Under the pieces are notes generated by a model that worked only from the letters and a program-made list of their open reading frames with translations, searched no databases and had not been told where the DNA came from. Of a stretch of DNA of 32,626 nucleotides, positions 4,095 through 22,006 are shown one piece after another. The stretch is from the IMG/VR virus record IMGVR_UViG_2778261384_000002; one strand, 5' to 3'. Each line of letters begins with the position of its first letter. Within the stretch, counting starts at the first letter, position 1. This DNA comes from a virus (lineage: Duplodnaviria; Heunggongvirae; Uroviricota; Caudoviricetes). The position numbers and the translations under genes were made by a program.

Positions 4095-4567
4095 GAATAA
4101 CCCCGCTCCCATTCGCTGGAAACCAGCGCGTGTAACTGGCCGGGCGAATAACGCCAGGCATCCCGTAACTGCATAAATTCGGCACAAAACTCGCTACAAA
4201 ACCACTTTTCAGGATTCCCACGGCAAAACAGCAAAAAGCCGATAACCCCGGCGATGTCGTATTTTTTCCCCGCGTACAGGCGGTAAAAACTGGCGATTTC
4301 CTGCGGGCTGGCGCTGATTTCGATCAAGTCCCATTTGTCAGAGGGTAAAGGCATTGTTTTAGCCCTGACCCCGCCATCACGGAACGATGACGAATAGCAG
4401 GTAAAATCCGTGCCGACGTCGTAGCACTGCGGCCCCACGGCGATTTCACAATGTGAATACGGACTGCGGGTAACAAGGCGTGTCACCCAGTCCGCCAGGC
4501 GGGCCAACCCTTTGTGTTCGCTGCGCCCACGATAAAACGCAATAAAAACCGCGTTCATGGTTGCCAC
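4070..4567 (-). CDS. Hypothetical protein with permuted papain-like (peptidase C92 / YiiX-like) motifs
   Basis: 165 aa; His-containing motif SPYSHCEIAV followed later by WFCSEFCAEF resembles the His-then-Cys order of C92/YiiX-type permuted papain-fold proteins; overlaps the tail fibre assembly gene stop by 13 nt. Confidence 0.35.
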   Translation of the reverse strand: MATMNAVFIAFYRGRSEHKGLARLADWVTRLVTRSPYSHCEIAVGPQCYDVGTDFTCYSSSFRDGGVRAKTMPLPSDKWDLIEISASPQEIASFYRLYAGKKYDIAGVIGFLLFCRGNPEKWFCSEFCAEFMQLRDAWRYSPGQLHALVSSEWERGYSWRGVMDS

Positions 4568-5157
4568 CCCTGGGACCAGTCGTAAGCCTCAACGGCGGCA
4601 ATATCGTCCAGGGCATTCACTGCCGCAATATGCGCCTGCGCGACGGCAAATAACCGCATATCATGTTCAATGGTCACAACCTCAAACTGCGCGGCGATCG
4701 CGTTGGTCAGTTCAATCATGCCGTTATTTTTGGTCTGCCACATAAGGCCAGACGGAAGCGCGCCCGCCTGCCCCATTTTTGCCAGCGTCATTTGCTGAAT
4801 GCGGCTGTCTGCGTCGCTGTGAAAATGATGGCCGTTAATTTCAACGTAATCAGCCGTCAACGTGTCGCGGTGTTGTTTGATTGACTGATTAACCGTTATT
4901 TTTGCGTGTTCCAGCGCGGCGCTGAATGCATCGGTGTCGTAAACCCATTTATCACCATTCAGGCGATAAAACTCACCTGGGGGAGGCGTTGTTACCAGTT
5001 TCCCAACGGCTGGATTTACCCAACAATCGCGATCATGGTAGCGCCACTGCGTGTCAGTGACGGGCATAATTGTTTCGGGTAAAACAATATTGAATTGATC
5101 GGTATCCAGCCACTGTAGAACTTTTAAATCAATAGGATTGTAATAAGCGTATTTCAT
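4555..5157 (-). CDS. Tail fibre assembly chaperone
   Basis: Start taken at internal ATG (MKYAYYNPIDLKV...) 4 nt after the tail fibre stop, with GGTGG Shine-Dalgarno; N-terminal motif and position directly downstream of the tail fibre gene are typical of Tfa chaperones. Confidence 0.6.
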   Translation of the reverse strand: MKYAYYNPIDLKVLQWLDTDQFNIVLPETIMPVTDTQWRYHDRDCWVNPAVGKLVTTPPPGEFYRLNGDKWVYDTDAFSAALEHAKITVNQSIKQHRDTLTADYVEINGHHFHSDADSRIQQMTLAKMGQAGALPSGLMWQTKNNGMIELTNAIAAQFEVVTIEHDMRLFAVAQAHIAAVNALDDIAAVEAYDWSQGWQP

Positions 5158-5161
5158 TGAG

Positions 5162-7255
5162 TTACCACCAAATTCTGACAAAACCTGGCGAACCATTGCC
5201 GCCATTACTTTTATTCAGCCCACTACAACTACCGCCAGAACCGCCCGCGCCGTATCCTGTCCCGTTACTACAACCTGATGGAATTCCTTTCCCACCAAGC
5301 CCGAATGGGCTATTTTCGCCGTCGCCAGCGGTCCATATTGTTGATTTAAGGCCATTGAATTCAGCCGGATCCCAAACGCCACTGTTCAGTAATCCACTGC
5401 CGCCCGCGGCTGAAACACCTCCGAAACTAGAAGAACCGCCAGCACCACCAACAATCAGCGCCGTGCCTGATGCAGGGATCGCACCAGCACCGCCAGCACC
5501 TACAGCAACAGAAACAGCCGCCCCCGGCGAAACGGCGACTATTGCAATAGCAATTTGAGCGGCGCGCCCTCCTGGTGCTGGCTTGTAGTAATTGGTGGAC
5601 GATGGGGCCGCGCTGCCGCCAGCACCGCCCCCGATCATTTCCACGAAAACTTTCTTTACCCCGGCAGGGACAGTAAATGTCCCGTTTGCAGTAAACAGGG
5701 CAAAATTACCGAAATAGCGCAAATCGGCGTTTGCCGTCGTGATAAAGTCCGGCGCGCCGGTAATATCGGACCAGGAGTGTTTATGGTTGGCAGCGGCTGC
5801 GCTTACGTCGCTGTACGTCAGCGTAATATCCGCTGACAGTGCCTTATTGTTCACCTTGCGCGTTGTTGGCACGGCGTTTACGTCGCTGTACGTCAGCGCA
5901 ATGTCCGCTGACAGCGCCTTATTGTTCACCTTGCGCGTTGTCGGCACGGCGTTTACGTCGCTGTATGTCAGCGTAATATCCGCTGACAGCGCCTTATTGT
6001 TCACCTTGCGCGTTGTCGGCACAGCGTTTACGTCGCTGTACGTCAGCGTGATGTCCGCTGACAGCGCCTTATCGTTCACCTTGCGCGTTGTTGGCACGGC
6101 ATTTACGTCGCTGTACGTCAGCGCAATGTCCGCTGACAGCGCCTTATTGTTCACCTTGCGCGTTGTCGGCACGGCGTTTACGTCGCTGTATGTCAGCGTA
6201 ATATCCGCTGACAGCGCCTTATTATTCACCTTGCGCGTATCCTGCACCGCGTGAACAATGCGTGGATCATCTGCTGCGGCAACCTGCCCCGCCAATTGCC
6301 CTACGTTGCACACCGCTGCGCCACCCAGCCCCAGATTTACGCGCGACTTGCCTTTATCATCCAAATCAGCCAAGTTTTGCGCCCGGCGCAAGTAGCGCTT
6401 ATCCAGATCGTCACTGTTACGCACTGGACGTAAATCAGTGACTGCCCCATCTGCGGCAATTTCAGCAATTTTAAATACATAGTGGGTTTTCCCCGCAGCA
6501 TCCGAATATTCAGCCAGATCGCCCGACGTAATGACGCAGATATCAGTGACCGGCACGCAGGCAGTCATTACAGACCCCTGCCAGACGGTATCCAGCCAGA
6601 CGGCGGCGGGTTTAGTCCCGACCGCGACATCCTGCGCGGCTTCGTTCGCCAATCGCAAACCGGCCACATAACCCAACCCCGGCAGGCAGCTATATTTCAC
6701 CCCGCTACGTTGAACCAGCCACCCATCATCAAAAAACAGCGCACTGCCGTAATGATCGATATTCAGTAAACGCTGATAATCATCAATACCCGTCAGACGG
6801 GCGGTAAAATCGATCTGCCACGTTTCGGCAGGCGTATTAATCCCTGTCTTTTCTGCAGCACCGTTAAATTCAATCAAAAACGAGCGAGTAAACGCGTTTC
6901 CCTGTTCCGTCGCCGTCGTTTTCACCTTTTCCAGCGCCGGGACCGTTGTCACCATCGCTAAAAGGCCCGTTTTTTTGCAAATCAGGCCGATCCAGTTAAA
7001 CGAAAAATCGCCGACGTTTGTTCCCAGGGTAAACGAGTACGCTACCGTGTTTTTGTTAACCACGCCCGCAGCGTTGACGGGTTCGCGGTAAACAATTTGC
7101 GCAGCATCCGGCAGACCGGCGTCACGGTTTATCACCGCACCCGGATCAAGGCCGGGCACATTAGCCAAAACAAATTCATCCAGCGAAATGTCGCCCGGCG
7201 TCAGCAGATCAGCGGCCTGCCACTGCTCAAATGCCGTCGTGATAATTGTTGCCAT
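5162..7255 (-). CDS. Tail fibre protein with tandem fibre repeats and glycine-rich C-terminal domain
   Basis: 697 aa; six tandem 26-aa repeats (TRKVNNKALSADITLTYSDVNAVPT) typical of phage tail-fibre repeat units; Gly-rich C-terminus; follows the gpI-like gene as in P2 (H after I). Confidence 0.8.
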   Translation of the reverse strand: MATIITTAFEQWQAADLLTPGDISLDEFVLANVPGLDPGAVINRDAGLPDAAQIVYREPVNAAGVVNKNTVAYSFTLGTNVGDFSFNWIGLICKKTGLLAMVTTVPALEKVKTTATEQGNAFTRSFLIEFNGAAEKTGINTPAETWQIDFTARLTGIDDYQRLLNIDHYGSALFFDDGWLVQRSGVKYSCLPGLGYVAGLRLANEAAQDVAVGTKPAAVWLDTVWQGSVMTACVPVTDICVITSGDLAEYSDAAGKTHYVFKIAEIAADGAVTDLRPVRNSDDLDKRYLRRAQNLADLDDKGKSRVNLGLGGAAVCNVGQLAGQVAAADDPRIVHAVQDTRKVNNKALSADITLTYSDVNAVPTTRKVNNKALSADIALTYSDVNAVPTTRKVNDKALSADITLTYSDVNAVPTTRKVNNKALSADITLTYSDVNAVPTTRKVNNKALSADIALTYSDVNAVPTTRKVNNKALSADITLTYSDVSAAAANHKHSWSDITGAPDFITTANADLRYFGNFALFTANGTFTVPAGVKKVFVEMIGGGAGGSAAPSSTNYYKPAPGGRAAQIAIAIVAVSPGAAVSVAVGAGGAGAIPASGTALIVGGAGGSSSFGGVSAAGGSGLLNSGVWDPAEFNGLKSTIWTAGDGENSPFGLGGKGIPSGCSNGTGYGAGGSGGSCSGLNKSNGGNGSPGFVRIWW
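5795..6250. repeat. Tandem direct repeat, about 78 bp x 6, in-frame inside the tail fibre gene
   Basis: Unit cgtcgctgtacgtcagcgtaatatccgctgacag...ttgcgcgttgtcggcacggcgtttacgt recurs with 78-bp period and a few point differences. Coordinates approximate. Confidence 0.8.
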
Positions 7256-7261
7256 TGTTAT

Positions 7262-7795
7262 TTATTCCCTGATAAGTGACGCGGCGTGACACACATAGTC
7301 ATTGTGTACGCTGCCCGCCTGAATATTGATCGGCGTGGATGTTAACGACTGGAAGCGATAGCGGCGACAGGTGCGCCCGTACTGCCGGACGATTTCACGC
7401 AGCAGATCACCGTGTTCAGAGATCTGCCGGTCGGTCAAATCCAACAAAATGACGTCCCAGTCAATACCGTCTACACGCTCATTTATCCCGACAAAACCTA
7501 TTTCCAGCCGTTCAAATATCCGGGCAAAACCCGCCGTACTGCCTGCATCCTGCGCATTAATGAACGCGTAATTCACGCGGCGACGGAACAGATCCAGCGG
7601 CTCCGCGTTTAAGCGGGTGACGTCACGCTGCCAGGCCAGCAAAAAGAGGATCGTTTCGTTACAGGTCAGCGCATCAAACTGCTGCAACGGCCAGCGCAGC
7701 CACGCATCAAGCCAAAGCCAGAAACGTTTGCACGCTGCCGCCAGCTTTTGCGGTTCGCCTTTGTTCATCCAGCTGGGCAATTTAATGTTCATCAT
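7262..7795 (-). CDS. Baseplate/tail protein, P2 gpI-like
   Basis: Start taken at ATG overlapping the gpJ-like stop (ATGA), giving about 177 aa; motifs LAWQRDV...RRRVNYAFINAQDAGSTAGFARIFERLEIGF resemble P2 gpI as recalled. Confidence 0.55.
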   Translation of the reverse strand: MMNIKLPSWMNKGEPQKLAAACKRFWLWLDAWLRWPLQQFDALTCNETILFLLAWQRDVTRLNAEPLDLFRRRVNYAFINAQDAGSTAGFARIFERLEIGFVGINERVDGIDWDVILLDLTDRQISEHGDLLREIVRQYGRTCRRYRFQSLTSTPINIQAGSVHNDYVCHAASLIRE

Positions 7796-8976
7796 GCGCT
7801 GCCCCATTTCACGCTTAATGACCGCAGGCGCGGAATATTCAGTTCACTGACGATGTCATCAAGAGAAAATTCAACAGACGACAGGGCGGGAAACGCCTCG
7901 TGAATTTCTTCACCCAACTTAGAAAAGCCAAACCGCGACCAGGGCCACGTTTTGGTAACGTCATACGCTGAATTCTCACGAAACGCGCAGCGCACCATGT
8001 TTTCAACGACCCCCGGCAGATCAGCACGTTCAGCATCGGTAATCATCGCGTTATCCGGGATGTGAAGCGTCACTTCCAGTTCATGAAAGGTTTCCGGCAT
8101 AGGGAAACATTGCATATCGTCGCCGTGTCCGTGGTTTCCCTGCCCCATCACGTAATCATTTACGGCTGCAATAAACGGATCACTGATCACACCTGCATCC
8201 AGCAATAAATACGCGTTAGCTGTTCCCGGTCCGCGCGGGGCGTCATGTAAAAAGAAAATGCGAGCGGTGCTCAATCCGGCCACACTGGCGATCGCCGAGC
8301 GATACACGGCGTCAATGTGATAGTTACCCACGACGTTAAACTGGTTACGGATACGCGGGCGAAATTCGTCGTCAGACTCACGATCAGCGCCTGGCTTCGT
8401 CAGCCAGTCATCGCCGGTCGTCACTTCCGCAACTCCCGCCACCGCGACGGGTAAAACATGGTAATAACCGGGCGCAAGGTTCCAGGCACTGCCCGCAGTA
8501 TCAGCCGTACAGGCGATCGATAGCTGCGCAATACCTGCGGGGATCATCGTCGTCGCATCCACAATCAGGCGATAAACTTCACCGTTAACGCGTTCTGTCT
8601 GAATGACAGTACCTGCCGGAATTGTCACATTTTCATCAGCACTGGTTTTAATAAACGTCACTGCACCCTGGGCGCACGTCGCCGCCTTACGTTCCAGACG
8701 GACCGCCCACGCCAGCAGGTCAAGCCACGTCCCGATCGCCGTAGCAACAAAAAGGTTAGTCAGAACCACATCTGCCAGCACATCACGCAGCCACAGCACC
8801 GGTTTAGTGACAATGGCGGAAATCAGACGCCAGAACGGCGACATTAACGACGTGTTAGTGACCAGCCCTTCATCATCGGCGACAGTCTGGAACTTCGCCT
8901 GAATTTCCTTTTCCGTACCCGGCAGGCCCGCGTCATCCAACAGGGCGCGGTAATCGGGTTTAGGTGTATCACTCAT
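7792..8976 (-). CDS. Baseplate J-like protein
   Basis: About 394 aa from ATG at 8976 (MSDTPKPDY), overlapping the upstream ORF by 8 nt; size and position between W-like and I-like genes fit the baseplate J family. Confidence 0.6.
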   Translation of the reverse strand: MSDTPKPDYRALLDDAGLPGTEKEIQAKFQTVADDEGLVTNTSLMSPFWRLISAIVTKPVLWLRDVLADVVLTNLFVATAIGTWLDLLAWAVRLERKAATCAQGAVTFIKTSADENVTIPAGTVIQTERVNGEVYRLIVDATTMIPAGIAQLSIACTADTAGSAWNLAPGYYHVLPVAVAGVAEVTTGDDWLTKPGADRESDDEFRPRIRNQFNVVGNYHIDAVYRSAIASVAGLSTARIFFLHDAPRGPGTANAYLLLDAGVISDPFIAAVNDYVMGQGNHGHGDDMQCFPMPETFHELEVTLHIPDNAMITDAERADLPGVVENMVRCAFRENSAYDVTKTWPWSRFGFSKLGEEIHEAFPALSSVEFSLDDIVSELNIPRLRSLSVKWGSA

Positions 8977-9304
8977 AAACAACCTCAACTGGATCAATCA
9001 GTCCGAATTCATAGGTTTCTGCCGTCACAATGACGCGGCCTGCCGCTTCCTCATACACGCGCACCGTTCCGGGGATTAGGCGGTTATCCGTTTCCACCAT
9101 CAGAATAATTTGCAGATAAATATCATTGCGCATGACAGCGGAACGCTGGCCGATAAGGTGCGTTGCCAGATTGCTTTCAATGATGCCGTGTTTAATGTCC
9201 TGACCAATGCTGACACGGTTGTCACAAAGCGTTGGTTCACGTCCGGTATTTAAAAGAAAATCGCCGTTAACAATTTTCAGATCGATATACAGTTTTTCAG
9301 TCAT
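8969..9304 (-). CDS. Small baseplate protein, gpW/gp25-like (DUF2590-type)
   Basis: 111 aa directly downstream of the tape measure gene and upstream of gpJ-like; size and position fit a gpW/gp25-type wedge protein. Tentative. Confidence 0.45.
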   Translation of the reverse strand: MTEKLYIDLKIVNGDFLLNTGREPTLCDNRVSIGQDIKHGIIESNLATHLIGQRSAVMRNDIYLQIILMVETDNRLIPGTVRVYEEAAGRVIVTAETYEFGLIDPVEVVYE

Positions 9305-11715
9305 CCCGCCGACATCTCCGCCATTTCCGCTATTTGCTGGGCGTCCTGCGCCTGCTGCACATACACATTGACGTTACCCACGCTGCGGCTGTTGTTTATA
9401 TTGGTCGTGCTTTTTGTTGTTTTACTGCTGACGCTGGCTACACCCGGATCAAGGACACCACCACGTAATACACCTGGGCTAGCAGGAGGCGGCGGCGGTG
9501 CAGTAGGGGAAACAGACGCAGGAACAACACCCGGAACCATCACAGACGCAGGCAATACAGCACCAGGAACCGGCGCAACAGCAGCGGATGACGTCGCAAC
9601 ACCAGGCGGCAGCATTACGCCCGGCGCTGGGGATGGGGCGGGCAATATTGCCCCCGGAACTATCGCAGCAGATGCTACGGGCGCAGGTACTCCAGCCGGG
9701 ACGGCGTCGGCCCCTTTTAATTCAATATCGACACCAGGCAATTTATTTAGCTGTTCAACAATACCGTTATATACGCCGTAAAATTGCTGGGCGATCGAAT
9801 CCCACAAACCGGAAAACATCTGCCCGACCGATTCAACGCCCGATTTAAACGAATCAGCAAACGAGAATTCAGAAAATGCAGTACATACGCTGTTCCAGCC
9901 CGCAACAACAGCGGGCCACGCCTGGATCAGCCAGTTCACAGCACTAATTAACAGATTGATTGGCATCAGGATCACGTCAAATGCAGCAGCAACGACAGAA
10001 CCGGCTGTACTGCCAGCATCAGAAAAAGTCGCCAGTTCATTTTCGGTATACTGAATTGGCGTCAGCAAATCACTAAACCAGCCGCACAGGCTTTTAATGC
10101 CATTCCATAACCAACTAACCACAGAACAAACCGCAGAAAATACCGGCCCCAACGCCGCCAGAACGTTCTGCAAAACCTGCGACTTTTGCGCCGCCTGCGC
10201 GAATCCAGTAACAAAACCGCTGAAAAATGCTTTAATTGGATTCCAGAATTTCACGACGGCAACCACGACAGCGCCGATCGCTAAAGCGATTAACGCAACC
10301 ACCCCCCAGATCGGGGCGGAAATGGCCGCAAGACTCCCACCAAAAGACAGCAAAGACATGCGCGCAGCCACCAGAGCGGTACGAAACAGCCTTGTGACAC
10401 CCGTTAACCGCAGGATGGACGCTGCACCACTGCTTAACGCTTTGAACATCGGCGTAATACCGGTGAAGATCCCCGCCAATTTAACGCCGGAATATGCCAT
10501 TTTAAGGCCACCGATCATCACGGAAAATGCTGCACCCGCCGCCGTTGCGCCAATAATTGACGCGGTAACAATTCCGATCCAGCGCGTAATATTCGGGAAT
10601 TTATTCAGCCAGGCGACAGCCGACTGGGCGACCTTTGTCATTTTTATCAGTAGCGGTTCCAAAACCGGCAACAACGCAGACCCCACAGCAATTTTTACCG
10701 CCGTAATACCTGCGGCGGCGCGCTCCCACGGATCGGCAACCGTGGCGGCGGCGCGTTTTACGTCGTCCAGCCCGTCGATCGCGTCAATCTCGCTGATACT
10801 GCGTTTCAGCCCGTCCGTATCACTGATCAGCAACTTGATCAGGGAAACCGCTTCATCACTGCCAAACGCTTTTTTCAGCAGGTCAGAATCCGCTACTTTG
10901 CTGATGTTCCCGAACCGCTTATGCAGCATGTCGAGAATTGCAGGCATTGACTTCATTTGCCCGGTGGCATCGGTAAACGACATTTTCAGCGTTTTCTGGG
11001 CGTTCCCTACCCCCGCCAGAAACGCTTTATATTTTGTACCGGCTTCACTGCCTGACATTGTTGACTGCAACTGACCCAGGATCGCGAATTGTTCCGCACT
11101 GCTGCGGCCTGCTGTCTGCGCAGCGGCCCCAAGTGACGTAAACGCCTGCGACATTGATTCACCGTCAGATTTAAACAGGTTGGCCGCATAGGCGGTTTGC
11201 CCGCCGATTTTCTCAGCCCATTTGATTTTCCCCATGCCGTCAGCAGTCTGTTTAAAGATGCCGTACATGGTCCCCATGTAGTTTGTGATCGTCTGCGTAT
11301 CGGCCTTTGTCGCCTTTGCAACAACCGCTGACGTGGTTGTGAATCCGGTCAATTCATCAGCAGACAATCCAGAAATTGCGGACTGAATATCGTAAGACGC
11401 GCTGACGATCTCCGCCGCGCTGCCGCCGTACTGCATACTGAATTGAAGCGCCGCGTTTTTAAGCTGCTTTAATCCCGTTTCGGTTACGTCCAGCGCCTTT
11501 ACAGAGTCCAGCGCGCGGCGCATTTCGATCGCCGGTTCCAGCCCGCCTTTTAATGCCTGGCCTGCGGCCCACATTGCCGCCGTTCCCATTGCAACCTGCT
11601 GCGCGCCGCTTTTTGCCGTCTGGCCCAGTGCGCTGACCTGCTGACGAATACCGCGCAGTGGGGCGCTTGCGCGGTCAATCAGAGAAATAATATAAGTCAG
11701 CGATTCACTAGCCAT
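9301..11715 (-). CDS. Tail tape measure protein
   Basis: 804 aa; alpha-helical N-terminal two thirds, multiple hydrophobic segments in the middle, Pro/Ala/Val-rich C-terminus; preceded by a frameshift-type chaperone gene. Confidence 0.85.
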   Translation of the reverse strand: MASESLTYIISLIDRASAPLRGIRQQVSALGQTAKSGAQQVAMGTAAMWAAGQALKGGLEPAIEMRRALDSVKALDVTETGLKQLKNAALQFSMQYGGSAAEIVSASYDIQSAISGLSADELTGFTTTSAVVAKATKADTQTITNYMGTMYGIFKQTADGMGKIKWAEKIGGQTAYAANLFKSDGESMSQAFTSLGAAAQTAGRSSAEQFAILGQLQSTMSGSEAGTKYKAFLAGVGNAQKTLKMSFTDATGQMKSMPAILDMLHKRFGNISKVADSDLLKKAFGSDEAVSLIKLLISDTDGLKRSISEIDAIDGLDDVKRAAATVADPWERAAAGITAVKIAVGSALLPVLEPLLIKMTKVAQSAVAWLNKFPNITRWIGIVTASIIGATAAGAAFSVMIGGLKMAYSGVKLAGIFTGITPMFKALSSGAASILRLTGVTRLFRTALVAARMSLLSFGGSLAAISAPIWGVVALIALAIGAVVVAVVKFWNPIKAFFSGFVTGFAQAAQKSQVLQNVLAALGPVFSAVCSVVSWLWNGIKSLCGWFSDLLTPIQYTENELATFSDAGSTAGSVVAAAFDVILMPINLLISAVNWLIQAWPAVVAGWNSVCTAFSEFSFADSFKSGVESVGQMFSGLWDSIAQQFYGVYNGIVEQLNKLPGVDIELKGADAVPAGVPAPVASAAIVPGAILPAPSPAPGVMLPPGVATSSAAVAPVPGAVLPASVMVPGVVPASVSPTAPPPPPASPGVLRGGVLDPGVASVSSKTTKSTTNINNSRSVGNVNVYVQQAQDAQQIAEMAEMSAG

Positions 11716-11718
11716 AAT

Positions 11719-11910
11719 TTATCCAAATAATTTAGCGACGCCATTCGCAACGCCAATACTGAAATTTTCCCAGTAATGGTTATCAAGCCAGACAGCGCGG
11801 GCTAATGTCTGCTCTGAATCATCACCATCAGGCAGATAATAACGGCGCAGGGTTAGCATTTGTTCCAGCCCGTTATTTTCAATAGCCCGCACGCGGGCAG
11901 TTATTTTTTT
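11719..11910 (-). other. Putative programmed -1 ribosomal frameshift site and extension (gpE' analog)
   Basis: Minus-strand heptamer A AAA AAA (plus 11904-11910) sits just before the chaperone stop; the -1 frame is open for 61 codons and ends in TAA 3 nt before the tape measure ATG. Confidence 0.55.
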
Positions 11911-12161
11911 ACAACAATATCCAGTTCCGGCGCGTACTGTTTATTAACAGCCGCCGCGATCTGAATGGCTGCACCTGGCTTTTTCAGGATGCCGTTTAAT
12001 GCGTCCTTACTTTCGCGGGAAACAATGGCGCGCACATATTCAACTGATGGCGTAACTTTGTTATCCATTGCCATTTCATTGATAAAAGAGTTATAGGCGA
12101 CTTCGTTCGGTTCGAAAACAACATCCACACCGGAAATAGTCAGCGTAATAGATTCATCCAT
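11901..12161 (-). CDS. Tail assembly chaperone (P2 gpE-like), short form
   Basis: 86 aa immediately upstream of the tape measure gene; ends ...VVKK* with a slippery A7 run at its last codons. Confidence 0.6.
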   Translation of the reverse strand: MDESITLTISGVDVVFEPNEVAYNSFINEMAMDNKVTPSVEYVRAIVSRESKDALNGILKKPGAAIQIAAAVNKQYAPELDIVVKK

Positions 12162-12210
12162 TTTTATTTATCCAGAATAAAGAAGTTAATATTTTAAAGC
12201 GTTTAAATGG

Positions 12211-12549
12211 TTATTTAACGCCGTTGTGTTCCAGACTGAAATGATTTCCGTCTGGTTTACTGAAACGACCGCCCCACGTCCCGCCGAGCGATTCCCAATA
12301 CTCCCCAAGCAGCAAGTAATCACGACTGTCTGTCTTATATTCGCCTTTGATAAACAGATTAAAATCGACGGCCAGTCGCTGCGTATGCAAACTGTTTTTA
12401 ATGCCGCTGCCTTTTTTGGCATTCAGTGCCGCCTGTTCCGGCGTGCGGTACGCTTCACCAAATGTCAGCCAAAAGCCATTCGCGTTGGCGTACTGGATTA
12501 ATAAAGCGATCATTGATGTAAATCGCTGCTGCTTTTCACTCAGTGTCAT
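12211..12549 (-). CDS. Endolysin, peptidase M15-type (L-alanyl-D-glutamate / VanY-like)
   Basis: Start at internal ATG (MTLSEKQQRF...) with GGGAG Shine-Dalgarno; motifs FGEAYRTPEQ..., HTQRLAVDF and GGRFSKPDGNHF are typical of M15 zinc peptidase endolysins. Confidence 0.7.
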   Translation of the reverse strand: MTLSEKQQRFTSMIALLIQYANANGFWLTFGEAYRTPEQAALNAKKGSGIKNSLHTQRLAVDFNLFIKGEYKTDSRDYLLLGEYWESLGGTWGGRFSKPDGNHFSLEHNGVK

Positions 12550-12838
12550 TTGTCTTGCTCCCGTTCCTGGACTGCGCACGATTACGCAGCCATAGTTCAA
12601 CCGCCTGATAGCCCGCAATACCGAAAGCAGCCCCCAGACCGTTTATTGCAACGGGGTGTAAATCAGGGAACTGAATCAATGCAACACCGGCCACCATCGA
12701 CACCGCAGCGCCTAAAATTACGCGTCCAATAATTAAACGCAGTGTGATCGGTTCAGCGGTATTCAACACCTTACCCAATGCAATTAATGCGCCAATCCCC
12801 GCCAAAGTGAGAACGCTTTTTTCATGCGGTGTTAACAT
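12536..12838 (-). CDS. Putative holin (three predicted transmembrane segments)
   Basis: 100 aa; three hydrophobic stretches and a charged C-terminus (RNRAQSRNGSKTNDTE); 3' end overlaps the endolysin start. Confidence 0.5.
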   Translation of the reverse strand: MLTPHEKSVLTLAGIGALIALGKVLNTAEPITLRLIIGRVILGAAVSMVAGVALIQFPDLHPVAINGLGAAFGIAGYQAVELWLRNRAQSRNGSKTNDTE

Positions 12839-12842
12839 ATAA

Positions 12843-13310
12843 TTACCCGATTAAATCGCGGGTATCTTCATCTGACAGATAAGGAATACCATTAATTTTG
12901 ATAAATTCAGGCGCAGTCACTTTATATTTAATTTTATAAACTGATTTTTCGCCGCCTGCGGTGTCCACGTCCAGCAAACTGTCAATTGCCAGCTTACATC
13001 CAAAAGCCTCGACTTTAATTTTTTCGCTGCCCGCCTTTGCATAAAATAAAATGTCTTCCGGTTCAATTCCGCGATAACTGCCAGCCGATGCCGCCGCATC
13101 ATGGATACGTAAAAAGTTTTTGGTATCCAGTTCCATGTCACCTTCGGCGCTGACGTCGCCGTCAACATAACCATCAGGAATGCCGCGCGTTTTCGCTACG
13201 TCAGAGTTATCAGTAATAGTCAGTGTAATTTTATTTACATGAATCGTGGTATTGAATAACGTAATATCAAACGCCATTCCCGAAATGCGTTTAGAACCCG
13301 ACATAATCAA
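12843..13310 (-). CDS. Tail tube protein (FII-like)
   Basis: About 155 aa directly downstream of the sheath gene, with overlapping stop and start; track start is TTG, an ATG lies two codons in. Confidence 0.55.
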   Translation of the reverse strand: MIMSGSKRISGMAFDITLFNTTIHVNKITLTITDNSDVAKTRGIPDGYVDGDVSAEGDMELDTKNFLRIHDAAASAGSYRGIEPEDILFYAKAGSEKIKVEAFGCKLAIDSLLDVDTAGGEKSVYKIKYKVTAPEFIKINGIPYLSDEDTRDLIG

Positions 13311-14446
13311 GCCTCATTCTGTACAGACAGATCAACCATAATATTTACGCCAATAACCAGCGGGCATTCAGTCGGGCGCGCCTGTACGTAAATATTTACA
13401 TGCGTTGAATCAATCCATGTAATAACAATATCACCCTCTTTTGGTGAATAGACTTCACCGGGGAATGACACGCCGTTAATAGTGGTACTTTTCGCCATCG
13501 TGCGCAGCGGTTTAGCAAACTGCATTTGATGATATTCAACGCTGGACGGCGTGGAATTTAACGAGCGGTTACCAATATTGCGAATAGCCAGTAAACGCAC
13601 CTGGCGCGCCACTTTATCGACAATGCGCAAAATACGGATCGATTGATAGTCGCCTCCTTTTGTCGCCAATAACGGGCCATCATTCCAGTAAATACCCTCA
13701 AAATCCGCATACGTGACCGGAACAGAATAACGCGCAGCGTCCAGCGCCTGCACAATATCCGCTGTTACCGTCTCTCCGTTTTTGTCTTTAGTTGCGTTGC
13801 CAACAGACACGAGCGATCCAGTTAAAACGCGCGCGGGAGTATCTGCAATTGTCACCAGCCGATTACATAAACGTCCAGCAATTACACCTGGCAAATTCTC
13901 ATAAAGACGGGGAACCAGCATAACGCCATCAGCAACTAACCCCGTTTGCCATTGCGTTAAAGCGGCGGAATATTGTTGCCATGTCATGTCACCGCCAACA
14001 GGATTTTTAACGGGTAAAATAAACCATGTCCAACGACCGTATGTCGCGATTAATTCCTGGCGGAGAGCGGCAGCTTCTTTGGCGCTTTTAGTTAGAGAAA
14101 AACCGGACTCTTCTTCATTCCAGTCAGCAAAATCCTCTAACAATACAACGCCCTCAAAACTTCCGTATTTTTGGCATTTTTTAACAGCATCCTGCCACTT
14201 TTCGTCAGAATCCATAAAATAAACCGATGCCGACCAATTTTGCCCCGCATTCATCATGGCGGCGCGAATATCGTCACCCGCTGAACTTGTAATTTTGTCT
14301 AAATCAGTTTGAGTATTTAGCGTGTAAAAACCTGGGGTGTAATTTTCAAGCGGCGCATAGCTGACGAACAATAAATGCCGCTCTATTTCATTTACAGTGC
14401 CCTGCGCCAGATCAATCTGATTAACCTGCACTTGTGGGTAAGTCAT
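13307..14446 (-). CDS. Tail sheath protein (FI-like, DUF2586-type)
   Basis: 379 aa; position upstream of the tube gene and size fit a contractile-tail sheath; ATG overlaps the upstream gene stop. Confidence 0.55.
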   Translation of the reverse strand: MTYPQVQVNQIDLAQGTVNEIERHLLFVSYAPLENYTPGFYTLNTQTDLDKITSSAGDDIRAAMMNAGQNWSASVYFMDSDEKWQDAVKKCQKYGSFEGVVLLEDFADWNEEESGFSLTKSAKEAAALRQELIATYGRWTWFILPVKNPVGGDMTWQQYSAALTQWQTGLVADGVMLVPRLYENLPGVIAGRLCNRLVTIADTPARVLTGSLVSVGNATKDKNGETVTADIVQALDAARYSVPVTYADFEGIYWNDGPLLATKGGDYQSIRILRIVDKVARQVRLLAIRNIGNRSLNSTPSSVEYHQMQFAKPLRTMAKSTTINGVSFPGEVYSPKEGDIVITWIDSTHVNIYVQARPTECPLVIGVNIMVDLSVQNEA

Positions 14447-15075
14447 GGTTTTCTCACCTTTTTTAATTCCTGCGCTAATATCCGCGCGTTATGTTTTGAA
14501 CGGGTATCAAGCCAGGAGCGCGGCGGCGCGGGGATGTCCCATTCTTTTTTCGCGGCTTCTTCTTTCAGAATGCGAATAATCAGCCCCGCCTGCCCCTGCT
14601 TAATGTTCTGCGTAATCCATTTAATTGACGGCGTTTTCTTCTTTTTGCCTTGCTTAACCGTGTAACCCAGCTGCCGCAACTTGACCGCCTGCCCCCTCGT
14701 GACCGGCGCATCATATGCAGGCTGACCGCGCTGGCGCTTGAGCTGCGCAGCCGTCACATGTTCCGGCTTACCGTAGTGATGGCGCGCTGCCATATCGCTA
14801 TGAACGGGGTTTTTCCAGTGCAACTTCACATCATCAGAAGTCGGCGTAATGCTCATTAGCGCAGGAATGCGACGCATCATTTTTTTACTGCCGCGCTGGC
14901 GCTTTTCCCATCCGCGCCCGTCCGGTGTCCGCTGCGCCCTGGCGTTCTGCTGCGCTTCCCGCTTAATCCGCCTGGCGGCATTCTGCAAAACCTGCCGCCG
15001 CTTTGCCGGTGGCAGTTCCAGCGCCGAAAGCCTGATTAGCGCCTCACGCTGGCCGCGCAGGTCGGTTCTAATCAC
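14443..15075 (-). CDS. Tail completion / virion morphogenesis protein, P2 gpS-like
   Basis: Segment RRIKREAQQNARAQRTPDGRGWEKRQRG resembles the gpS-family N-terminal motif as recalled. Track ORF begins with GTG at 15186 inside the upstream gene; GTG at 15075 has a GGGGTGG Shine-Dalgarno and is used here. Confidence 0.5.
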   Translation of the reverse strand: MIRTDLRGQREALIRLSALELPPAKRRQVLQNAARRIKREAQQNARAQRTPDGRGWEKRQRGSKKMMRRIPALMSITPTSDDVKLHWKNPVHSDMAARHHYGKPEHVTAAQLKRQRGQPAYDAPVTRGQAVKLRQLGYTVKQGKKKKTPSIKWITQNIKQGQAGLIIRILKEEAAKKEWDIPAPPRSWLDTRSKHNARILAQELKKVRKP

Positions 15076-15547
15076 CGGCCACCCCAACAGACAGATCGTA
15101 ATGTTCTGCCGTCCAGATCTCCGGCTCAGACAATGACCAGCGCCTGCCGTCCCACTCAATAGCCCCCTGCGCGTCTTCGCGAACACACAGCGGGCAACTG
15201 AATTTAATCGTGATTTCCACGTCGGCGATTTCCTCCGCCGACTCAGCGATCACCAGTGACGGATCGGGCAACTCCAGCTCATCCCGTCGCGTGTCACAAT
15301 CTGCCAGCCAGCCAGTAATCAGGCAGAACAGCAGCGCAGGCGGATAAACACGAAACGGGTAATTTTCAAATGACAGCACCGCGTCAAACTGCAATTGCGC
15401 TATTTCGCTATACAGACCCATGTCGCGCGGGGCGTAAATTAGCGCGGCGTTTTCCATCCATGAATCAAGGCAGGCGGACACCTTCGGCGGCAACTTGCTG
15501 ATCAGATATTCAGTCAACGCATTAAGCTGCGTGCGTGTCGGCGTCAT
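15068..15547 (-). CDS. Tail completion protein, P2 gpR-like
   Basis: 159 aa; ATGA overlap with the gpL stop; hydrophobic/aromatic pattern loosely matches P2 gpR as recalled. Confidence 0.45.
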   Translation of the reverse strand: MTPTRTQLNALTEYLISKLPPKVSACLDSWMENAALIYAPRDMGLYSEIAQLQFDAVLSFENYPFRVYPPALLFCLITGWLADCDTRRDELELPDPSLVIAESAEEIADVEITIKFSCPLCVREDAQGAIEWDGRRWSLSEPEIWTAEHYDLSVGVAGD

Positions 15548-15996
15548 AACAACCTCACCGTGGCGCGGGCATAGCCCATAATCTGGCGGATAACCTGCGC
15601 AGCTTCACCGCGTAAGCCGTCCGCCGTTTCCTGCGATTCCGCGCCGGGGTGCGTTTCACGACGTCCCACGGTGGCAAATTCCGGCATTAAATCGGCTTTC
15701 GCCCTGGCAAAAACAGCCTTTTTGTAAGACTCAGTCAGCGCGTTAGCCCCTTCACACGACGGCCCCGGAACATCTGCCGCAGAGGAATACCCCTGGCCGT
15801 GTTGAATATCGGTCCAGGTATCCAGATCACGGTTTACGCTGTCAATTGCCGCAAGTAGCGCCGCGATAACCGTCGCATTGGCGATACTGGCGGGGATCTG
15901 GCGGCGTTCCTCAAATTCTCCGGCGTTAATATCCGGCCAGAACTCCACGTTTTTGATCACCCGGTCCTGGTAGTTCGCCGTTTTGCCGGAAAACAT
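15544..15996 (-). CDS. Head completion/stabilisation protein, P2 gpL-like
   Basis: 150 aa directly downstream of the gpM-like gene with overlapping stop and start; size and order fit P2 L. Confidence 0.7.
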   Translation of the reverse strand: MFSGKTANYQDRVIKNVEFWPDINAGEFEERRQIPASIANATVIAALLAAIDSVNRDLDTWTDIQHGQGYSSAADVPGPSCEGANALTESYKKAVFARAKADLMPEFATVGRRETHPGAESQETADGLRGEAAQVIRQIMGYARATVRLL

Positions 15997-16808
15997 TAAG
16001 CGCCCTCAGTTTCAGAAGTCGCGGGCTGACCGGCGTCCACGGCGTGATCGGCGTTTTCTTCGCCTACACCCTCAGCCGCGCCCGCGCCGCGTGGCGGAGT
16101 CGTTTCAAGTTTGCGCAGACGTGCCGCGATACGCCCACGCAGGGAAGTAACCCCCGCGTTTTTGTATAGCGTGCCTGCCGCTTCCAGATATAAATCGGCC
16201 TGGCGCAATGCTGCCGGATCATCAAGATTTGCGGGATTAATGCGCCCATCAGCACCGCGCAGGATCAGGAAACCGGCCAGTTTGTAATATTTCGCCGTTA
16301 GCTGTTCGTTGAGCTTCCAGCGCTCAGTCACATTCTTAAAGGTTTGAGAGAAAAACGGCTCAATACTGCGGCCCGCTTCAAACTCAATTTCTGACCAGTC
16401 CAGCACTTCATCAGCCACCGTTCCGGGCAGATTGTTACGGAAACCTTCCGGTGACTCCTGACCCTGCTCGATCGCAATATCAGCCCAGTTCAGCGCCTGT
16501 TCAAACTTTCTGATGTCCATCAGCCAGACAATGCACCAGACGAAAACCGGATTTTGATAGATGTCGCCCGCTTCCAGGTACTTTTCAGCCCACGGCAACC
16601 AGCGCGGCAGCATAACGTCACGCTTCATTTGAAAGCGTTCTGCGTTGCTATGCAGATCGCGCAGCGTCCCGACATCCTGCCGTAACTGCAAAAGCTGCAC
16701 ATACAAACTACTGTCATCCAGACCAACCGCGCGGGGTGCGGCTTCACCGGTCATAACCTGGCGCGCGCGAATGCTTTCGACGTGGCGCTGAAACGGTGTC
16801 AACGGCAT
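15996..16808 (-). CDS. Terminase endonuclease / small subunit, P2 gpM-like
   Basis: 270 aa between capsid gene N and L; conserved P2 head-operon order O-N-M-L. Confidence 0.75.
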   Translation of the reverse strand: MPLTPFQRHVESIRARQVMTGEAAPRAVGLDDSSLYVQLLQLRQDVGTLRDLHSNAERFQMKRDVMLPRWLPWAEKYLEAGDIYQNPVFVWCIVWLMDIRKFEQALNWADIAIEQGQESPEGFRNNLPGTVADEVLDWSEIEFEAGRSIEPFFSQTFKNVTERWKLNEQLTAKYYKLAGFLILRGADGRINPANLDDPAALRQADLYLEAAGTLYKNAGVTSLRGRIAARLRKLETTPPRGAGAAEGVGEENADHAVDAGQPATSETEGA

Positions 16809-16817
16809 AACAAACCC

Positions 16818-17810
16818 TTACTTGATAGTGACTGCGGCTTCATCGATCGCGGCGTACAGCGCGGGAATTTCCAGCGCATAGCCCTGCATACGCCACCAGG
16901 AGGATTCAAACGCCTTACGGTCCCCGACGTGCTTCGCTTCGCGGCGCTGCGTGCCGGTTTGCGTGTAGCAATGCAGGTTTTTAGGGATAGTCACTGCAAT
17001 ACGCTTACCAGGGAAGAAAGGCGGTGTAACGTGGCGACGACCGGCGATAGATTTCAGCATCGGCGTAAACGCGGCTTTTTCGGTCGGCTTATCGGTCTGG
17101 TTTGCCATGCGCTGCTGTTCAGCGGCAATCAGATCAGAACCGGCCAGCACCGTTAATTGTGGATGTTCGCGGAATTGCGCGGGCAGCATCGCGATCACAT
17201 CCAGCGCCGCAGCGTCCAGGGTTAAATAATCCCCGCCAGCGCCGATCGACACGGCTGCGGTGAGAACATGAGAACCGTTGTCGTATTCCTTAGAAATCTG
17301 ATGCCAGCCCTTGTTAACATCTTCGCCGTTCGGGTTCGCCACCGGATCGGTATTTTCGGCAAAACTTTTACCATTAAAGCCGATGCGCAGGATGTCCAGC
17401 GCGAAGGATTCGTTTGCAAACTCAGTGACGAGTTTAAAGAACTCACCAGGCGTCCCGGAATTCGCCCAGACAGCCAAAAGCGCCCACTTCAGGCGCGCGC
17501 AGGAATCCGTTTCGCGCAATTCGTATTCGTTGCCATCAACGCCCAGATCGACACCGAAGCGCCCATCTTTTTTACGTCCAGTTAAAAGTTTAGAAACGCC
17601 AGCTTCAACAACCGCGCCTTTAATCTGGTTAACCGACAGCATAGAAATTTCTTTCAGAAATGCCGTTGAATCCAGCAGTGCTTTACGCAGTTTAATTTCC
17701 TGCGGCTGACTGATAGTGAACATATGCTTTGTGGTGGCGACGCTATACGCTTTCGCAAGCGTCACCGCATATTGGTTAATAAGTTTTTCCGCTTCCGGAG
17801 TAAGAATCAT
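16818..17810 (-). CDS. Major capsid protein, P2 gpN-like
   Basis: 330 aa following the scaffold gene; size and position fit P2 N. Confidence 0.8.
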   Translation of the reverse strand: MILTPEAEKLINQYAVTLAKAYSVATTKHMFTISQPQEIKLRKALLDSTAFLKEISMLSVNQIKGAVVEAGVSKLLTGRKKDGRFGVDLGVDGNEYELRETDSCARLKWALLAVWANSGTPGEFFKLVTEFANESFALDILRIGFNGKSFAENTDPVANPNGEDVNKGWHQISKEYDNGSHVLTAAVSIGAGGDYLTLDAAALDVIAMLPAQFREHPQLTVLAGSDLIAAEQQRMANQTDKPTEKAAFTPMLKSIAGRRHVTPPFFPGKRIAVTIPKNLHCYTQTGTQRREAKHVGDRKAFESSWWRMQGYALEIPALYAAIDEAAVTIK

Positions 17811-17847
17811 TTATTTATTCCTGATGAATAGTAATTATTACCCGGCT

Positions 17848-18693
17848 TTACACCAGATAATCCGGCACGGTCTGCGCGGGTTCGCCGTTCGGCTGTTCCG
17901 TCGTTTCACCAGACAGCGCGGTAAACTTTTGCAGCAACTGATCGACCTTGCCATTAAGTGTGGTGAATTGCTCCACGGTCACGACTTGCGACTGATCACT
18001 TTCCAGACTGTTTTGATTATTTTCAATAACAGTCGTGTTTTGTTTTGCGCTGAATGATTTAATTTCATCTACGGCGGTCCCCATTTTTTCTACAGCGGTA
18101 TTAAACACGCCCATTAATTGCGTGAATTGCTGTTCGTTCATAACGTCTTCTTCCTGATTAATGTCCGGATCGCGCGCGCCCTTTTCAGGTGACTGCGGCG
18201 GACGTGAAAAAATACGGCTGAAAAAAGAATCTTTTTCGGCAACTTCGGTCATCGGTTCACCGCTGCAAAAGCTGATAACATTCGGCGCGCCGGAAAATTC
18301 AAGACGATCGGTCCCCGTACTGGCGGGCAAATCGGTAACAGCAATCCCCGCAAGGTAATGCTTTCCGGTACTGGCGAAATTTTCCAGAATTTCTACGGAT
18401 GGGAATAGCTTTTGCTGATCATCGCGGTTTAACGACATCATCCATTTATTAGGCAGGAAACGCGCGTACAGCTTGATTTTGCCGTTAACCGTTTCACACT
18501 TAACGCTATGAACCGTGCCGAGGTTGTACCATTTTTGATGGCGGTCAACACTTGACGGCCAAATCATAGCGGTATATTCCGCCGCGTTATAAGTTTCCGC
18601 AGCTTCTGTCAGCCATTGTTCTTTTATTTCCCGCCCGTCTACAGTCGGGCCAGCAGTGGCAACGCAAAACCACGCGGTGGGTGTTTGTTTCAT
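17848..18693 (-). CDS. Capsid scaffolding protein, P2 gpO-like
   Basis: 281 aa (P2 gpO about 284 aa); first gene of the minus-strand head operon, divergent from terminase P; acidic coiled-coil C-terminal half. Confidence 0.8.
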   Translation of the reverse strand: MKQTPTAWFCVATAGPTVDGREIKEQWLTEAAETYNAAEYTAMIWPSSVDRHQKWYNLGTVHSVKCETVNGKIKLYARFLPNKWMMSLNRDDQQKLFPSVEILENFASTGKHYLAGIAVTDLPASTGTDRLEFSGAPNVISFCSGEPMTEVAEKDSFFSRIFSRPPQSPEKGARDPDINQEEDVMNEQQFTQLMGVFNTAVEKMGTAVDEIKSFSAKQNTTVIENNQNSLESDQSQVVTVEQFTTLNGKVDQLLQKFTALSGETTEQPNGEPAQTVPDYLV

Positions 18694-18845
18694 AAGTTAC
18701 CCTCATTTCGATAAAGTAAAGTAAAACACCCAGCCGTTTTATTTTCATGCCGTTAATTTCTGACTATTTCGGATATAAACCGTTATCAGAATTAAAGCGA
18801 ATATAGACCGGATACCCAACGTTTTTTAAATGCAAAAATCCCCTT
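18694..18845. promoter_or_regulatory. Divergent late-promoter region between O and P operons
   Basis: 152-bp AT-rich gap between divergently transcribed head operons, equivalent to the P2 P_O/P_P late promoter region. No Ogr-box (TGT-N12-ACA) could be located by eye. Confidence 0.4.
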
Positions 18846-20618
18846 ATGAAATATTCAGACGAATTAAGGGGAATGGCGAAAGCCCTTTATTTAAAGGGAC
18901 TCACCCCGAAAGAAATCGCCGCCCAGTTAAATCTGCCATCTGCGCGGATTATTTATCACTGGGCTGACGTGGGCGAATGGCGCGACCAGATGAAGGTCGT
19001 AAACATTGAAGACGCGATCGCGCGCCGCATTGCCCTGCTGACTGACCGGGAAAAGAAAACACCCGGCGAACTGGACGAACTGGACCGCCTGATCGGCCAT
19101 CACGTCAAACTGCTGACATCCAGAAATAAGCACGCTGAAAGAATGGCGGAAATAGACGCACGCGGACCCAGTGAAACATCGCGCGCAGCAGCCCCGGACG
19201 ACAGCGACGGCAAATCACGCCAGAAGAAAAGGCGCGCGAATGACGTCAGCCACCTGACAGAAGCTGATTTTGAGCGCTTCCTTTCGACACTGTTCGGCTA
19301 TCAGAAACGGCTGCATGAGAATTTAAGCCAGAAGATCCGCAACATACTGAAAAGCCGTCAGATCGGCGCGACATACTATTTTGCGTTTGAAGCGTTCGAA
19401 AACGCGACGCTGACCGGCGACCCGCAAATATTTCTTTCTGCCAGTAAGCGACAATCAGAAGTTTTCCGGTCATACATTGTCAATATCGCGTTGCAGGAAT
19501 TCGGCGTTACGCTGAAAGGCAACCCGATCAAACTGAACACCGCGCACGGCATCGCCGAACTGCATTTTCTGGCGACCAACAGCAACACCGCGCAGTCGAA
19601 TTCCGGTCACGTTTATATTGATGAATATTTCTGGATACCGAAATTTAATCGCCTTAATGACGTTGCGTCAGCGATGGCGACCCATGACAGATGGCGTTTA
19701 ACGTACTTTTCCACGCCGTCCGCTAAAACGCATGAGGCTTACCCGTTCTGGACCGGTGAAACATGGAAAGGCGGCAATAAAAAGCGGCGGGCGGCAGTCT
19801 TCCCGACGTTTGACGAAATGCGCGACGGCGGGCGACTTTGCCCGGATAAACAATGGCGGTACGTCATCACCCTGGAAGATGCGATCGCGGGCGGCTTCAA
19901 TCTGGCCAACATTGACGACTTGCGCGATCGCTACAGTGAAACCGCTTTTGCCATGCTGTTTATGTGCCAGTTTGTGGACGACAAAAACAGCGTGTTCAGG
20001 TTTTCCGACGTGGTGCGCTGCGGTGTGGAAACCAGCAAATGGAAGGATTACCAGCCCGGCAACGCGCACCCATATAACGGGGAGGTGTGGGGCGGGTTCG
20101 ACCCCGCGCGAACCGGCGACAACGCGACATTTGTCATTGTTGCCATTCCATCCACCCTGGCCGAAATGTTCCGCGTTCTGGAAAAGTATCACTGGCGCGG
20201 TTTGTCGTTTCAGTACATGGCGGATCAGATAGAAAAACTATTCCGGCTGTTCAATATGACGTTTATCGGCGTTGACGTGACCGGCATCGGCTACGGCGTG
20301 TTTGAACTGATCCAGAACTTCGCCCGCCGCCAGGCAGTGGCAATCCGCTACAACGTCGAAACGAAAACCCAGCTTGTACTGAAAATGATAGACGTCATCG
20401 AAAACCAGCGGATCGAATGGGACGCCCAGGAAAAGGACATTGCAGCGTCATTTATGAGCGTCAAAAAGGCGACCACGCAGAGCGGCGACAACCTGACGTT
20501 CATTGCAGACCGCAGCGCAGAGCACGGTCACGCCGATGTTTTCTTTGCAATCGCTCACGCGCTCTTTAATGAGCCGTTGAACTGGAAAAATAAACGTAAA
20601 TCAACATGGGCCGTATAA
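18846..20618 (+). CDS. Terminase large (ATPase) subunit, P2 gpP-like
   Basis: 590 aa (P2 gpP is 590 aa); divergent from the O-N-M-L operon and followed by the portal gene with TAAATG overlap. Confidence 0.9.
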   Translation: MKYSDELRGMAKALYLKGLTPKEIAAQLNLPSARIIYHWADVGEWRDQMKVVNIEDAIARRIALLTDREKKTPGELDELDRLIGHHVKLLTSRNKHAERMAEIDARGPSETSRAAAPDDSDGKSRQKKRRANDVSHLTEADFERFLSTLFGYQKRLHENLSQKIRNILKSRQIGATYYFAFEAFENATLTGDPQIFLSASKRQSEVFRSYIVNIALQEFGVTLKGNPIKLNTAHGIAELHFLATNSNTAQSNSGHVYIDEYFWIPKFNRLNDVASAMATHDRWRLTYFSTPSAKTHEAYPFWTGETWKGGNKKRRAAVFPTFDEMRDGGRLCPDKQWRYVITLEDAIAGGFNLANIDDLRDRYSETAFAMLFMCQFVDDKNSVFRFSDVVRCGVETSKWKDYQPGNAHPYNGEVWGGFDPARTGDNATFVIVAIPSTLAEMFRVLEKYHWRGLSFQYMADQIEKLFRLFNMTFIGVDVTGIGYGVFELIQNFARRQAVAIRYNVETKTQLVLKMIDVIENQRIEWDAQEKDIAASFMSVKKATTQSGDNLTFIADRSAEHGHADVFFAIAHALFNEPLNWKNKRKSTWAV

Positions 20619-21964: not shown

Positions 21965-21993
21965 AAAAACCGCCGTATTGGCGGTTTTTTATA
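21965..21993. terminator. Bidirectional rho-independent terminator
   Basis: AAAAAAA-CCGCCG-tatt-GGCGGT-TTTTTT hairpin with A-run and T-run, between the convergent ogr-like gene (+) and HEPN-motif gene (-). Coordinates approximate. Confidence 0.6.
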
Positions 21994-22006
21994 TCTATAA
22001 ATTTTG

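Follow-up and report, generated by a model that had tools for sequence, protein, structure and literature searches.

A probable programmed -1 ribosomal frameshift joins a Phage_TAC_10 tail assembly chaperone to DUF6890 in an HP1-like Escherichia coli prophage

In the DNA analysed here, a 32,626-nucleotide stretch of the caudoviricete virus record IMGVR_UViG_2778261384_000002 (the window in what follows), the gene for an 86-aa putative tail assembly chaperone ends in a run of A residues, and the interval between it and the tape-measure gene is occupied by a second ORF of 61 open codons in the -1 frame, which lacks a conserved start and carries a coding signal right after the 0-frame stop. This arrangement raises the question of whether the second ORF is a gene of its own or is reached by ribosomes that leave the chaperone frame. 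The window represents an HP1-like (Peduoviridae-type) E. coli prophage, and comparison with related loci points, with high confidence, to programmed -1 frameshifting by the ribosome at the end of its chaperone gene. The features of the locus are collected in Table 1.

Table 1. Coordinates of the chaperone locus and its neighbours in the numbering of the window.
Feature	Position	Strand	Remarks
Tail sheath gene	13307..14446	-	PF10758 (DUF2586), E=3e-104; phrog_907 'tail sheath', E=2e-117
Tail tube gene, HP1 Orf24 family	12843..13310	-	PF10772, E=7e-61; phrog_1182 'tail protein'
Holin	12536..12838	-	PF04550; RefSeq annotation of identical region
M15 endolysin	12211..12549 (RefSeq call)	-	PF13539
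Tail assembly chaperone ORF, 0 frame	12161..11901	-	86 aa; stop TAA 11903..11901
Slippery heptamer A_AAA_AAA	11910..11904	-	in phase GT[A AAA AAA] TAA = X_XXY_YYZ; abuts 0-frame stop
Putative -1 frame extension, 61 codons	11722..11904	-	base 11904 would be read twice; stop TAA 11721..11719
Candidate stimulatory hairpin GCCCG-CGUG-CGGGC	11885..11898	-	from RNA fold; 5 nt past heptamer
Tape measure protein gene, 804 aa	9301..11715	-	PF10145, E=7.5e-31; phrog_28, E=5.5e-98

The anatomy of the locus was established by reading the minus strand of window positions 11400..12400 directly, together with the ORF listing. The 86-codon chaperone ORF ends with ...GAT ATT GTT GTA AAA AAA TAA on that strand, and translation in the -1 frame from the last A of the heptamer gives ITARVRAIENNGLEQMLTLRRYYLPDGDDSEQTLARAVWLDNHYWENFSIGVANGVAKLFG (61 sense codons), whose part upstream of its Met-16 includes the peptide AIENNGLEQMLTLR. 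Only the trinucleotide ATT (11718..11716) separates the stop of this extension from the tape-measure ATG at 11715, leaving a gap of 3 nt. The original prediction of a canonical -1 heptamer at the end of the chaperone ORF is thus borne out by the sequence, and the lengths that it gave (86 aa, 61 codons and a 3-nt gap) all agree with both the sequence and the ORF list. An A7 run alone is not unusual, as 11 such runs occur in the window against 18.9 expected from shuffles. A -1 frame that stays open for at least 61 codons past the gene end was found for 14 of the 34 window genes; this control is confounded by neighbouring genes that overlap in that frame, which is why open -1 frames are common in the window, and it was not counted as evidence.

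Both parts of the locus belong to known protein families. The 86-aa ORF matches PF10963 (Phage_TAC_10) over its full length (1-82/82; E=1e-33, 115.7 bits with a gathering threshold of 25.7), and the -1 peptide matches PF21830 (DUF6890; E=1.2e-20, 73.4 bits with a gathering threshold of 23.6), which is described by Pfam as a family of unknown function, as well as phrog_7050. The predicted model, which covers the 86-aa chaperone part, bears a possible resemblance to tail assembly chaperone folds; a PDB sequence profile search with an alignment of the fused protein gave nothing significant (best E=0.26), and no family was matched in NCBIfam. The gene order is sheath, tube, holin, endolysin, chaperone and tape measure, with baseplate genes downstream. 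The tape-measure gene immediately follows the chaperone gene, and the tube gene precedes it, as in the lambda G/GT and P2 E/E+E' class of chaperone pairs, with the lysis genes inserted between tube and chaperone in the same order as in HP1, F108 and PV94. By analogy with lambda gpGT (PMC5009743), the tube protein is the presumed partner of the extension domain.

Several further features of the neighbourhood were observed. The gap between endolysin and chaperone is just 49 nt (12162..12210) and holds no spanin genes, which sit at the corresponding place in Yersinia phage YenM324, HP1, phiO18P and phi3. Relatives of the chaperone protein were found in 68 phage records, all of HP1-like Peduoviridae; the 15-kb structural region at window positions 7000..22000 had no megablast match among 50,697 phage records, and the window thus represents an HP1-like E. 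coli prophage lineage without a closely related sequenced phage isolate in that collection. Seven of 5,426 complete E. coli genomes and two IMG/VR contigs contain, with 100% identity, a segment of 601 bases that takes in the chaperone gene and the extension and reaches ~66 nt into the tape-measure gene. The tape-measure ORF has 2415 nt (804 aa) in the window versus 2334 nt (777 aa; positions 3536..5869 of locus L001) in the RefSeq record of E. coli 40EC, where the 601-base segment is identical; the difference of 81 nt would imply a different tail length. Further along, window positions 5799..6238 contain 5.9 tandem copies of a 75-nt unit (93% matches), which encodes the 25-residue repeat RKVNNKALSADITLTYSDVNAVPTT in a putative tail fibre (697-aa ORF, 5162..7255, minus strand). 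In addition, a 32-nt stretch inside the chaperone gene, TTACGCCATCAGTTGAATATGTGCGCGCCATT (~12017..12048, minus strand; also positions 411-442 of locus L003), is a perfect match to a type I-E CRISPR spacer of E. coli 2014C-3097 and is preceded in the window by AAG, the canonical PAM. Just a short match at this place was found in 89 further complete E. coli genomes, and among the matches listed 8 of 8 lay in annotated CRISPR regions; the prophage itself is present in only 7 complete E. coli genomes.

The comparison with relatives was based on 24 genome loci and 80 viral-contig loci encoding relatives, together with annotated phage regions, which yielded 97 distinct sequences; these are related to one another, so the counts do not represent independent events. 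A heptamer A_AAA_AAN is present in phase in all 97 sequences (A_AAA_AAC in 92, A_AAA_AAA in 4 and A_AAA_AAG in 1), and the codon ahead of it is NTA throughout (GTA in 90, CTA in 6 and ATA in 1), GTA making up about 20% of the Val codons elsewhere in the compared genes. The surroundings are more variable: the 0-frame stop immediately follows the heptamer in 95 of the 97 and may be TGA (52), TAA (39) or TAG (6), and the downstream sequence varies too. The extension measures 60-64 codons across the set and terminates at the tape-measure start, its stop overlapping that start by 4 nt in 66 sequences and by 1 nt in 19. As the heptamer is kept in phase in every sequence and is followed each time by an extension of this length reaching the tape-measure start, the signal goes beyond chance, and the comparison shows the site to be maintained by selection.

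The site also occurs in the phages HP1, F108, phiO18P, PV94, ACA1 and phi3 and in two Vibrio phages, and the host genera with the conserved site include Haemophilus, Pasteurella, Aeromonas, Vibrio, Pseudoalteromonas and Pseudomonas. The 0 frame of ACA1 and phi3 runs 21 nt beyond the heptamer, so that conservation concerns the heptamer as such, over and above its place among the closing codons of the gene. Only one locus, L027, lacks the heptamer in frame; its chaperone gene is interrupted midway by an indel, and it retains ...EIEVKN-stop, the slippery site and the extension one frame back. This locus comes from Enterobacter sp. EA-1 (CP025776.1, ~2500..2760), and the indel may be an error of the assembly or a mark of a decaying prophage.

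Whether the extension is translated from its beginning was assessed in an ungapped alignment of 70 sequences (A3), in which the 42 nt from the 0-frame stop to the position of the ATG called by RefSeq were tested. Column entropy by -1-frame codon position was 0.54, 0.51 and 1.42, and 72% of single-base codon differences were synonymous in the -1 frame compared with 8% and 9% in the other two frames. This periodicity and the excess of synonymous changes show that the 42-nt stretch is under protein-coding selection in the -1 frame, and residues R90, I94, N97 and Q101 of the putative fusion, all upstream of the RefSeq ATG, are conserved in the family. At the position of that ATG a start codon is found in only 4 of the 97 sequences and a Tyr codon in 77, so that 93 have no start there; a GTG, ATG or TTG at extension codon 4-5 is present in only 7, and in 48 the first ATG, GTG or TTG of the extension frame comes at codon 47-51. 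The window itself has a GTG at codon 5 (11892) and an ATG at codon 16, the latter shared with 3 relatives, and some independent initiation at this ATG may make a minor contribution in the lineage of the window.

When the extension served as query for an exhaustive HMMER search of 1.84 billion representative proteins, only 27 credible relatives were returned, all of 30-81 aa; their called starts are ragged (the alignments begin at query residues 3 to 34), and no in-frame fusion of DUF6890 to anything was found among these proteins. A less informative word-indexed search yielded just 4 small ORFs. Similarly, all of 60 chaperone homologues have at most 86 aa, save one of 87 aa. Entry from the chaperone frame is the only consistent way in which the conserved N-terminal part of DUF6890 could be translated, and the data show translation of the extension in the -1 frame without a start of its own. 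The original prediction of a frameshift gains support from the in-phase site in all 97 sequences, from the start-less -1 extension and from the coding constraint in the -1 frame.

RNA structure downstream of the heptamer differs among clades. The main clade has a stem of 7 bp closing a 17-nt loop, which begins 8 nt past the heptamer; it is 87% paired over 70 sequences (at most 46% for slid controls), four of its pairs have changed on both sides in a compensatory manner, and the folding energy lies far below that of shuffles (median z -2.98, 64 sequences). Some of these compensatory changes alter amino acids on both stem arms, as in locus L080, where this holds for both changes in the stem CGAATCC/GGATTCG. 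In the window, 4 of the 7 pairs of the main-clade stem can form, non-contiguously (first row of A3), and the stem is not preserved there. Other clades, among them those of the window, PV94 and the Vibrio phages, each have a different hairpin at the same place. Between 3 and 9 nt past the same heptamer, the stems are of 7 bp around a 17-nt loop, 6 bp around GGUG, 8-9 bp in PV94 and 7 bp around an 11-nt loop in Vibrio prophages (A3 columns 17-52; loci L004, L080, L019, L113, L114 and others).

The hairpin of the window has five G-C pairs, and the region around it folds with about -9 kcal/mol. Shuffled sequences fold just as stably (z=+0.36) and the pairing is not general across the family (48% of cells paired), on which grounds the hairpin is regarded as a candidate stimulator and not as a proven one. 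Inspection for an upstream Shine-Dalgarno-like stimulator revealed only a weak GGA ~9 nt upstream, which also encodes conserved residues.

The same protein could in principle be made without any slip of the ribosome, if RNA polymerase added one A to the A7 run and A8 mRNAs were then read straight through into the V-K-K-I-T-A... fusion. Worked from the sequence, one inserted A yields exactly the -1 product, and AAAAAAA is under-represented in all three frames of E. coli genes, which was attributed by the authors of that study partly to transcriptional slippage or indel mutation (PMC4066793). However, it is from ~9 bases upwards that runs prone to slippage are seen to be selected against, and a run of 8 A's has been called non-slippery (PMC1088944); where transcriptional slippage calls for about 9 or more A/T, the window has 7 A's and 92 of the 97 relatives have 6 followed by C. 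The constant X_XXY_YYZ phase of the A run also argues against transcriptional slippage, as does the stem with compensatory changes found 5-9 nt downstream in most clades, a position typical of a stimulator of ribosomal frameshifting. Transcriptional slippage as the source of the fusion is accordingly regarded as unlikely, even though the A7 run permits a little of it, with an identical protein as the result; a variant in which the A7 lineages make part of their fusion in this way is less likely than a purely ribosomal origin.

Annotation, on the other hand, favours two genes, namely the 86-aa chaperone and an independent 47-aa 'DUF6890 family protein': PGAP calls them separately in all 7 identical E. 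coli genomes, a separate small ORF also appears in the records of phiO18P, F108, phi3 and a Vibrio prophage, and the ATG at extension codon 16 (giving MLTLRR..., 47 aa) or the GTG at 11892 (57 aa) would be usable as starts in the window. The family as a whole offers little room for this arrangement, since neither start position is kept among the relatives, the starts called in databases are ragged rather than fixed, and the 14 codons ahead of the RefSeq ATG, with their conserved residues, are already under coding constraint in the -1 frame; independent genes are accordingly considered very improbable. An ordinary gene of 147 codons, broken in two by a frameshift mutation or only seemingly so by an error of sequencing, is hardly conceivable as the origin of the locus. 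Homopolymer runs are indeed error-prone, and L027 has an indel elsewhere in the gene, but the region is identical in seven complete genomes and two metagenomic contigs, the same -1 offset is held by all 97 relatives, including those with A6C sites, which are not long homopolymers, and no uninterrupted fused gene was found among the 1.84 billion representative proteins or the 60 chaperone homologues. The homopolymer error that the original prediction had named as its possible refutation is excluded by these identical assemblies and by the A6C relatives.

A programmed ribosomal frameshift would then work as follows. Most ribosomes would translate the 86-codon ORF and halt at UAA, releasing the short chaperone, while a minority would slip back one base on A_AAA_AAA, either with two tRNA-Lys slipping in tandem or with the P-site tRNA-Lys slipping while the A site is filled by the stop codon, which is slow to decode; both routes are possible because the stop directly abuts the heptamer in 95 of the 97 sequences, and both would give the same protein. 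The slipped ribosomes would read AUA ACU GCC... for 61 more codons and produce a 147-aa fusion (Phage_TAC_10 plus DUF6890) ending at the start of the tape-measure gene, and slipping may be made more frequent by the G-C hairpin 5 nt downstream. In E. coli, -1 shifting is documented for the heptamers A_AAA_AAA and A_AAA_AAC, which along with A_AAA_AAG are the prevailing motifs of the IS1 and IS3 families; A_AAA_AAC functions in IS1 although its intrinsic efficiency is low (PMC4066793). We infer that the efficiency at the chaperone site is probably low as well, which would suit a chaperone pair because the lambda pair requires a ratio of ~30:1 (PMC5009743). If the pair behaves like lambda G/GT and P2 E/E+E', the tape-measure protein would be coated by the N-terminal part common to both forms and the tail tube protein would be brought in by the extension, with neither form of the chaperone left in the virion. 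No demonstration of a 147-aa product of the Phage_TAC_10 family was found in the literature searched.

The frameshift reading differs from the current annotation. RefSeq describes the locus in the 7 identical E. coli genomes as a 'putative phage tail assembly chaperone' and a separate 47-aa 'DUF6890 family protein', and most phage records of the family give the second part as a separate 'DUF6890 family protein' or 'hypothetical protein', or omit it. Searches of the literature found nothing on DUF6890, and nothing relevant for HP1, orf26 and frameshift. In the light of the comparative data, the free-standing 'DUF6890 family protein' gene models of RefSeq are most probably wrong. We further consider it likely that DUF6890 is never independent and forms an obligatory -1 extension of all Phage_TAC_10 chaperones in HP1-like contractile-tailed phages, with a signal made of an A-run 'shifty stop' and downstream stems reinvented differently in each clade; on this reading DUF6890 would be the counterpart of the lambda T domain and of P2 E'. 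Recognition of the frameshift would give DUF6890 a function and would correct gene models in the HP1-like prophages of Enterobacterales, Pasteurellaceae, Vibrio, Aeromonas, Pseudoalteromonas and Pseudomonas. The stems of the different clades, all combined with one heptamer, provide a small set of natural downstream stimulators that are exchangeable for one another. The observation holds up, yet it exemplifies a rule that is well known and leaves the existing concept unchanged; what it contributes is a further, independent sequence family in which the chaperone frameshift of phages is conserved.

Among known systems, the heptamer class of the window is shared with IS1 insAB' (A_AAA_AAC) and dnaX (A_AAA_AAG), which are unrelated genes; dnaX has an upstream Shine-Dalgarno stimulator, of which sequence inspection reveals no clear counterpart in the window. 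An A7 site had been regarded in the original prediction as a departure from the usual chaperone arrangement, a view that does not hold, as AAAAAAC adjoining the chaperone stop has been published for phage Loki and the same heptamer for the tail chaperone of phiCbK (PMC5313236, PMC3556154).

The architecture of the window is shared by the gpE/gpE+E' pair of P2, which, like the window, combines a contractile tail and membership of the Peduoviridae with a second part in the -1 frame. Its products are of comparable size (91 aa for the short form and 142 aa for the fusion, versus 86 and 147 aa), and its fusion ends at or overlaps the start of the tape-measure gene T, the same layout as in the window. 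The P2 site, however, is T_TTT_TTG ~20 nt before the E stop, whereas the A run of the window lies directly against the stop, and the P2 chaperone gene follows the tube gene directly, whereas a holin and an endolysin lie between them in the window. The label gpE/E'-type, given to the pair in the original prediction, therefore fits in architecture and presumed function and does not extend to membership of the P2 families. The window fusion matches neither of the P2 families, PF10109 (Phage_TAC_7) and PF06528 (Phage_P2_GpE), and alignment with P2 E', which had been suggested as a check, was carried out as a profile comparison and gave no similarity (24-sequence profile of the window family against P2 E+E', hhalign probability 0.2%). 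The two pairs are thus best described as analogous, without homology detectable at the level of sequence profiles.

The lambda tail is non-contractile, the lambda slippery site is G_GGA_AAG, and homology of the lambda proteins with those of the window is not expected. The gpG/gpGT pair follows the same logic as the window, the gene ahead of the tape measure having a -1 slip close to its end; its shared part binds the tape measure, the extension of gpGT binds the major tail subunit, and tail assembly depends on both forms, which are made in a fixed low ratio and do not stay in the virion (PMC5009743). The roles proposed above for the window chaperone and its extension are taken over from this system by analogy.

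Both Pfam families of the window recur in HP1 and ACA1. The type member, orf26 of HP1 (Phage_TAC_10), has both Pfam families in common with the window at 43.5% identity and carries A_AAA_AAC against its stop; the -1 extension, an ORF of 60 codons ahead of orf27, stops short of the tape-measure gene. Its last codon is AAC rather than the AAA of the window, the upstream lysis genes are shared, and its record annotates neither the extension nor a frameshift. The gp36/gp36a pair of Pseudoalteromonas phage ACA1 (OR438928), a true homologue, has PF10963, PF21830 and the same A_AAA_AAA; it is ~32% identical to the window protein, and its 0-frame stop lies 21 nt past the heptamer instead of next to it. 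A-run heptamers beside a chaperone stop are thus already known, and so is a frameshift annotation in this homologue: the ACA1 record gives gp36a as a two-piece CDS with a 'projected programmed frameshift analogous to that in phage P2' and cites the P2 paper.
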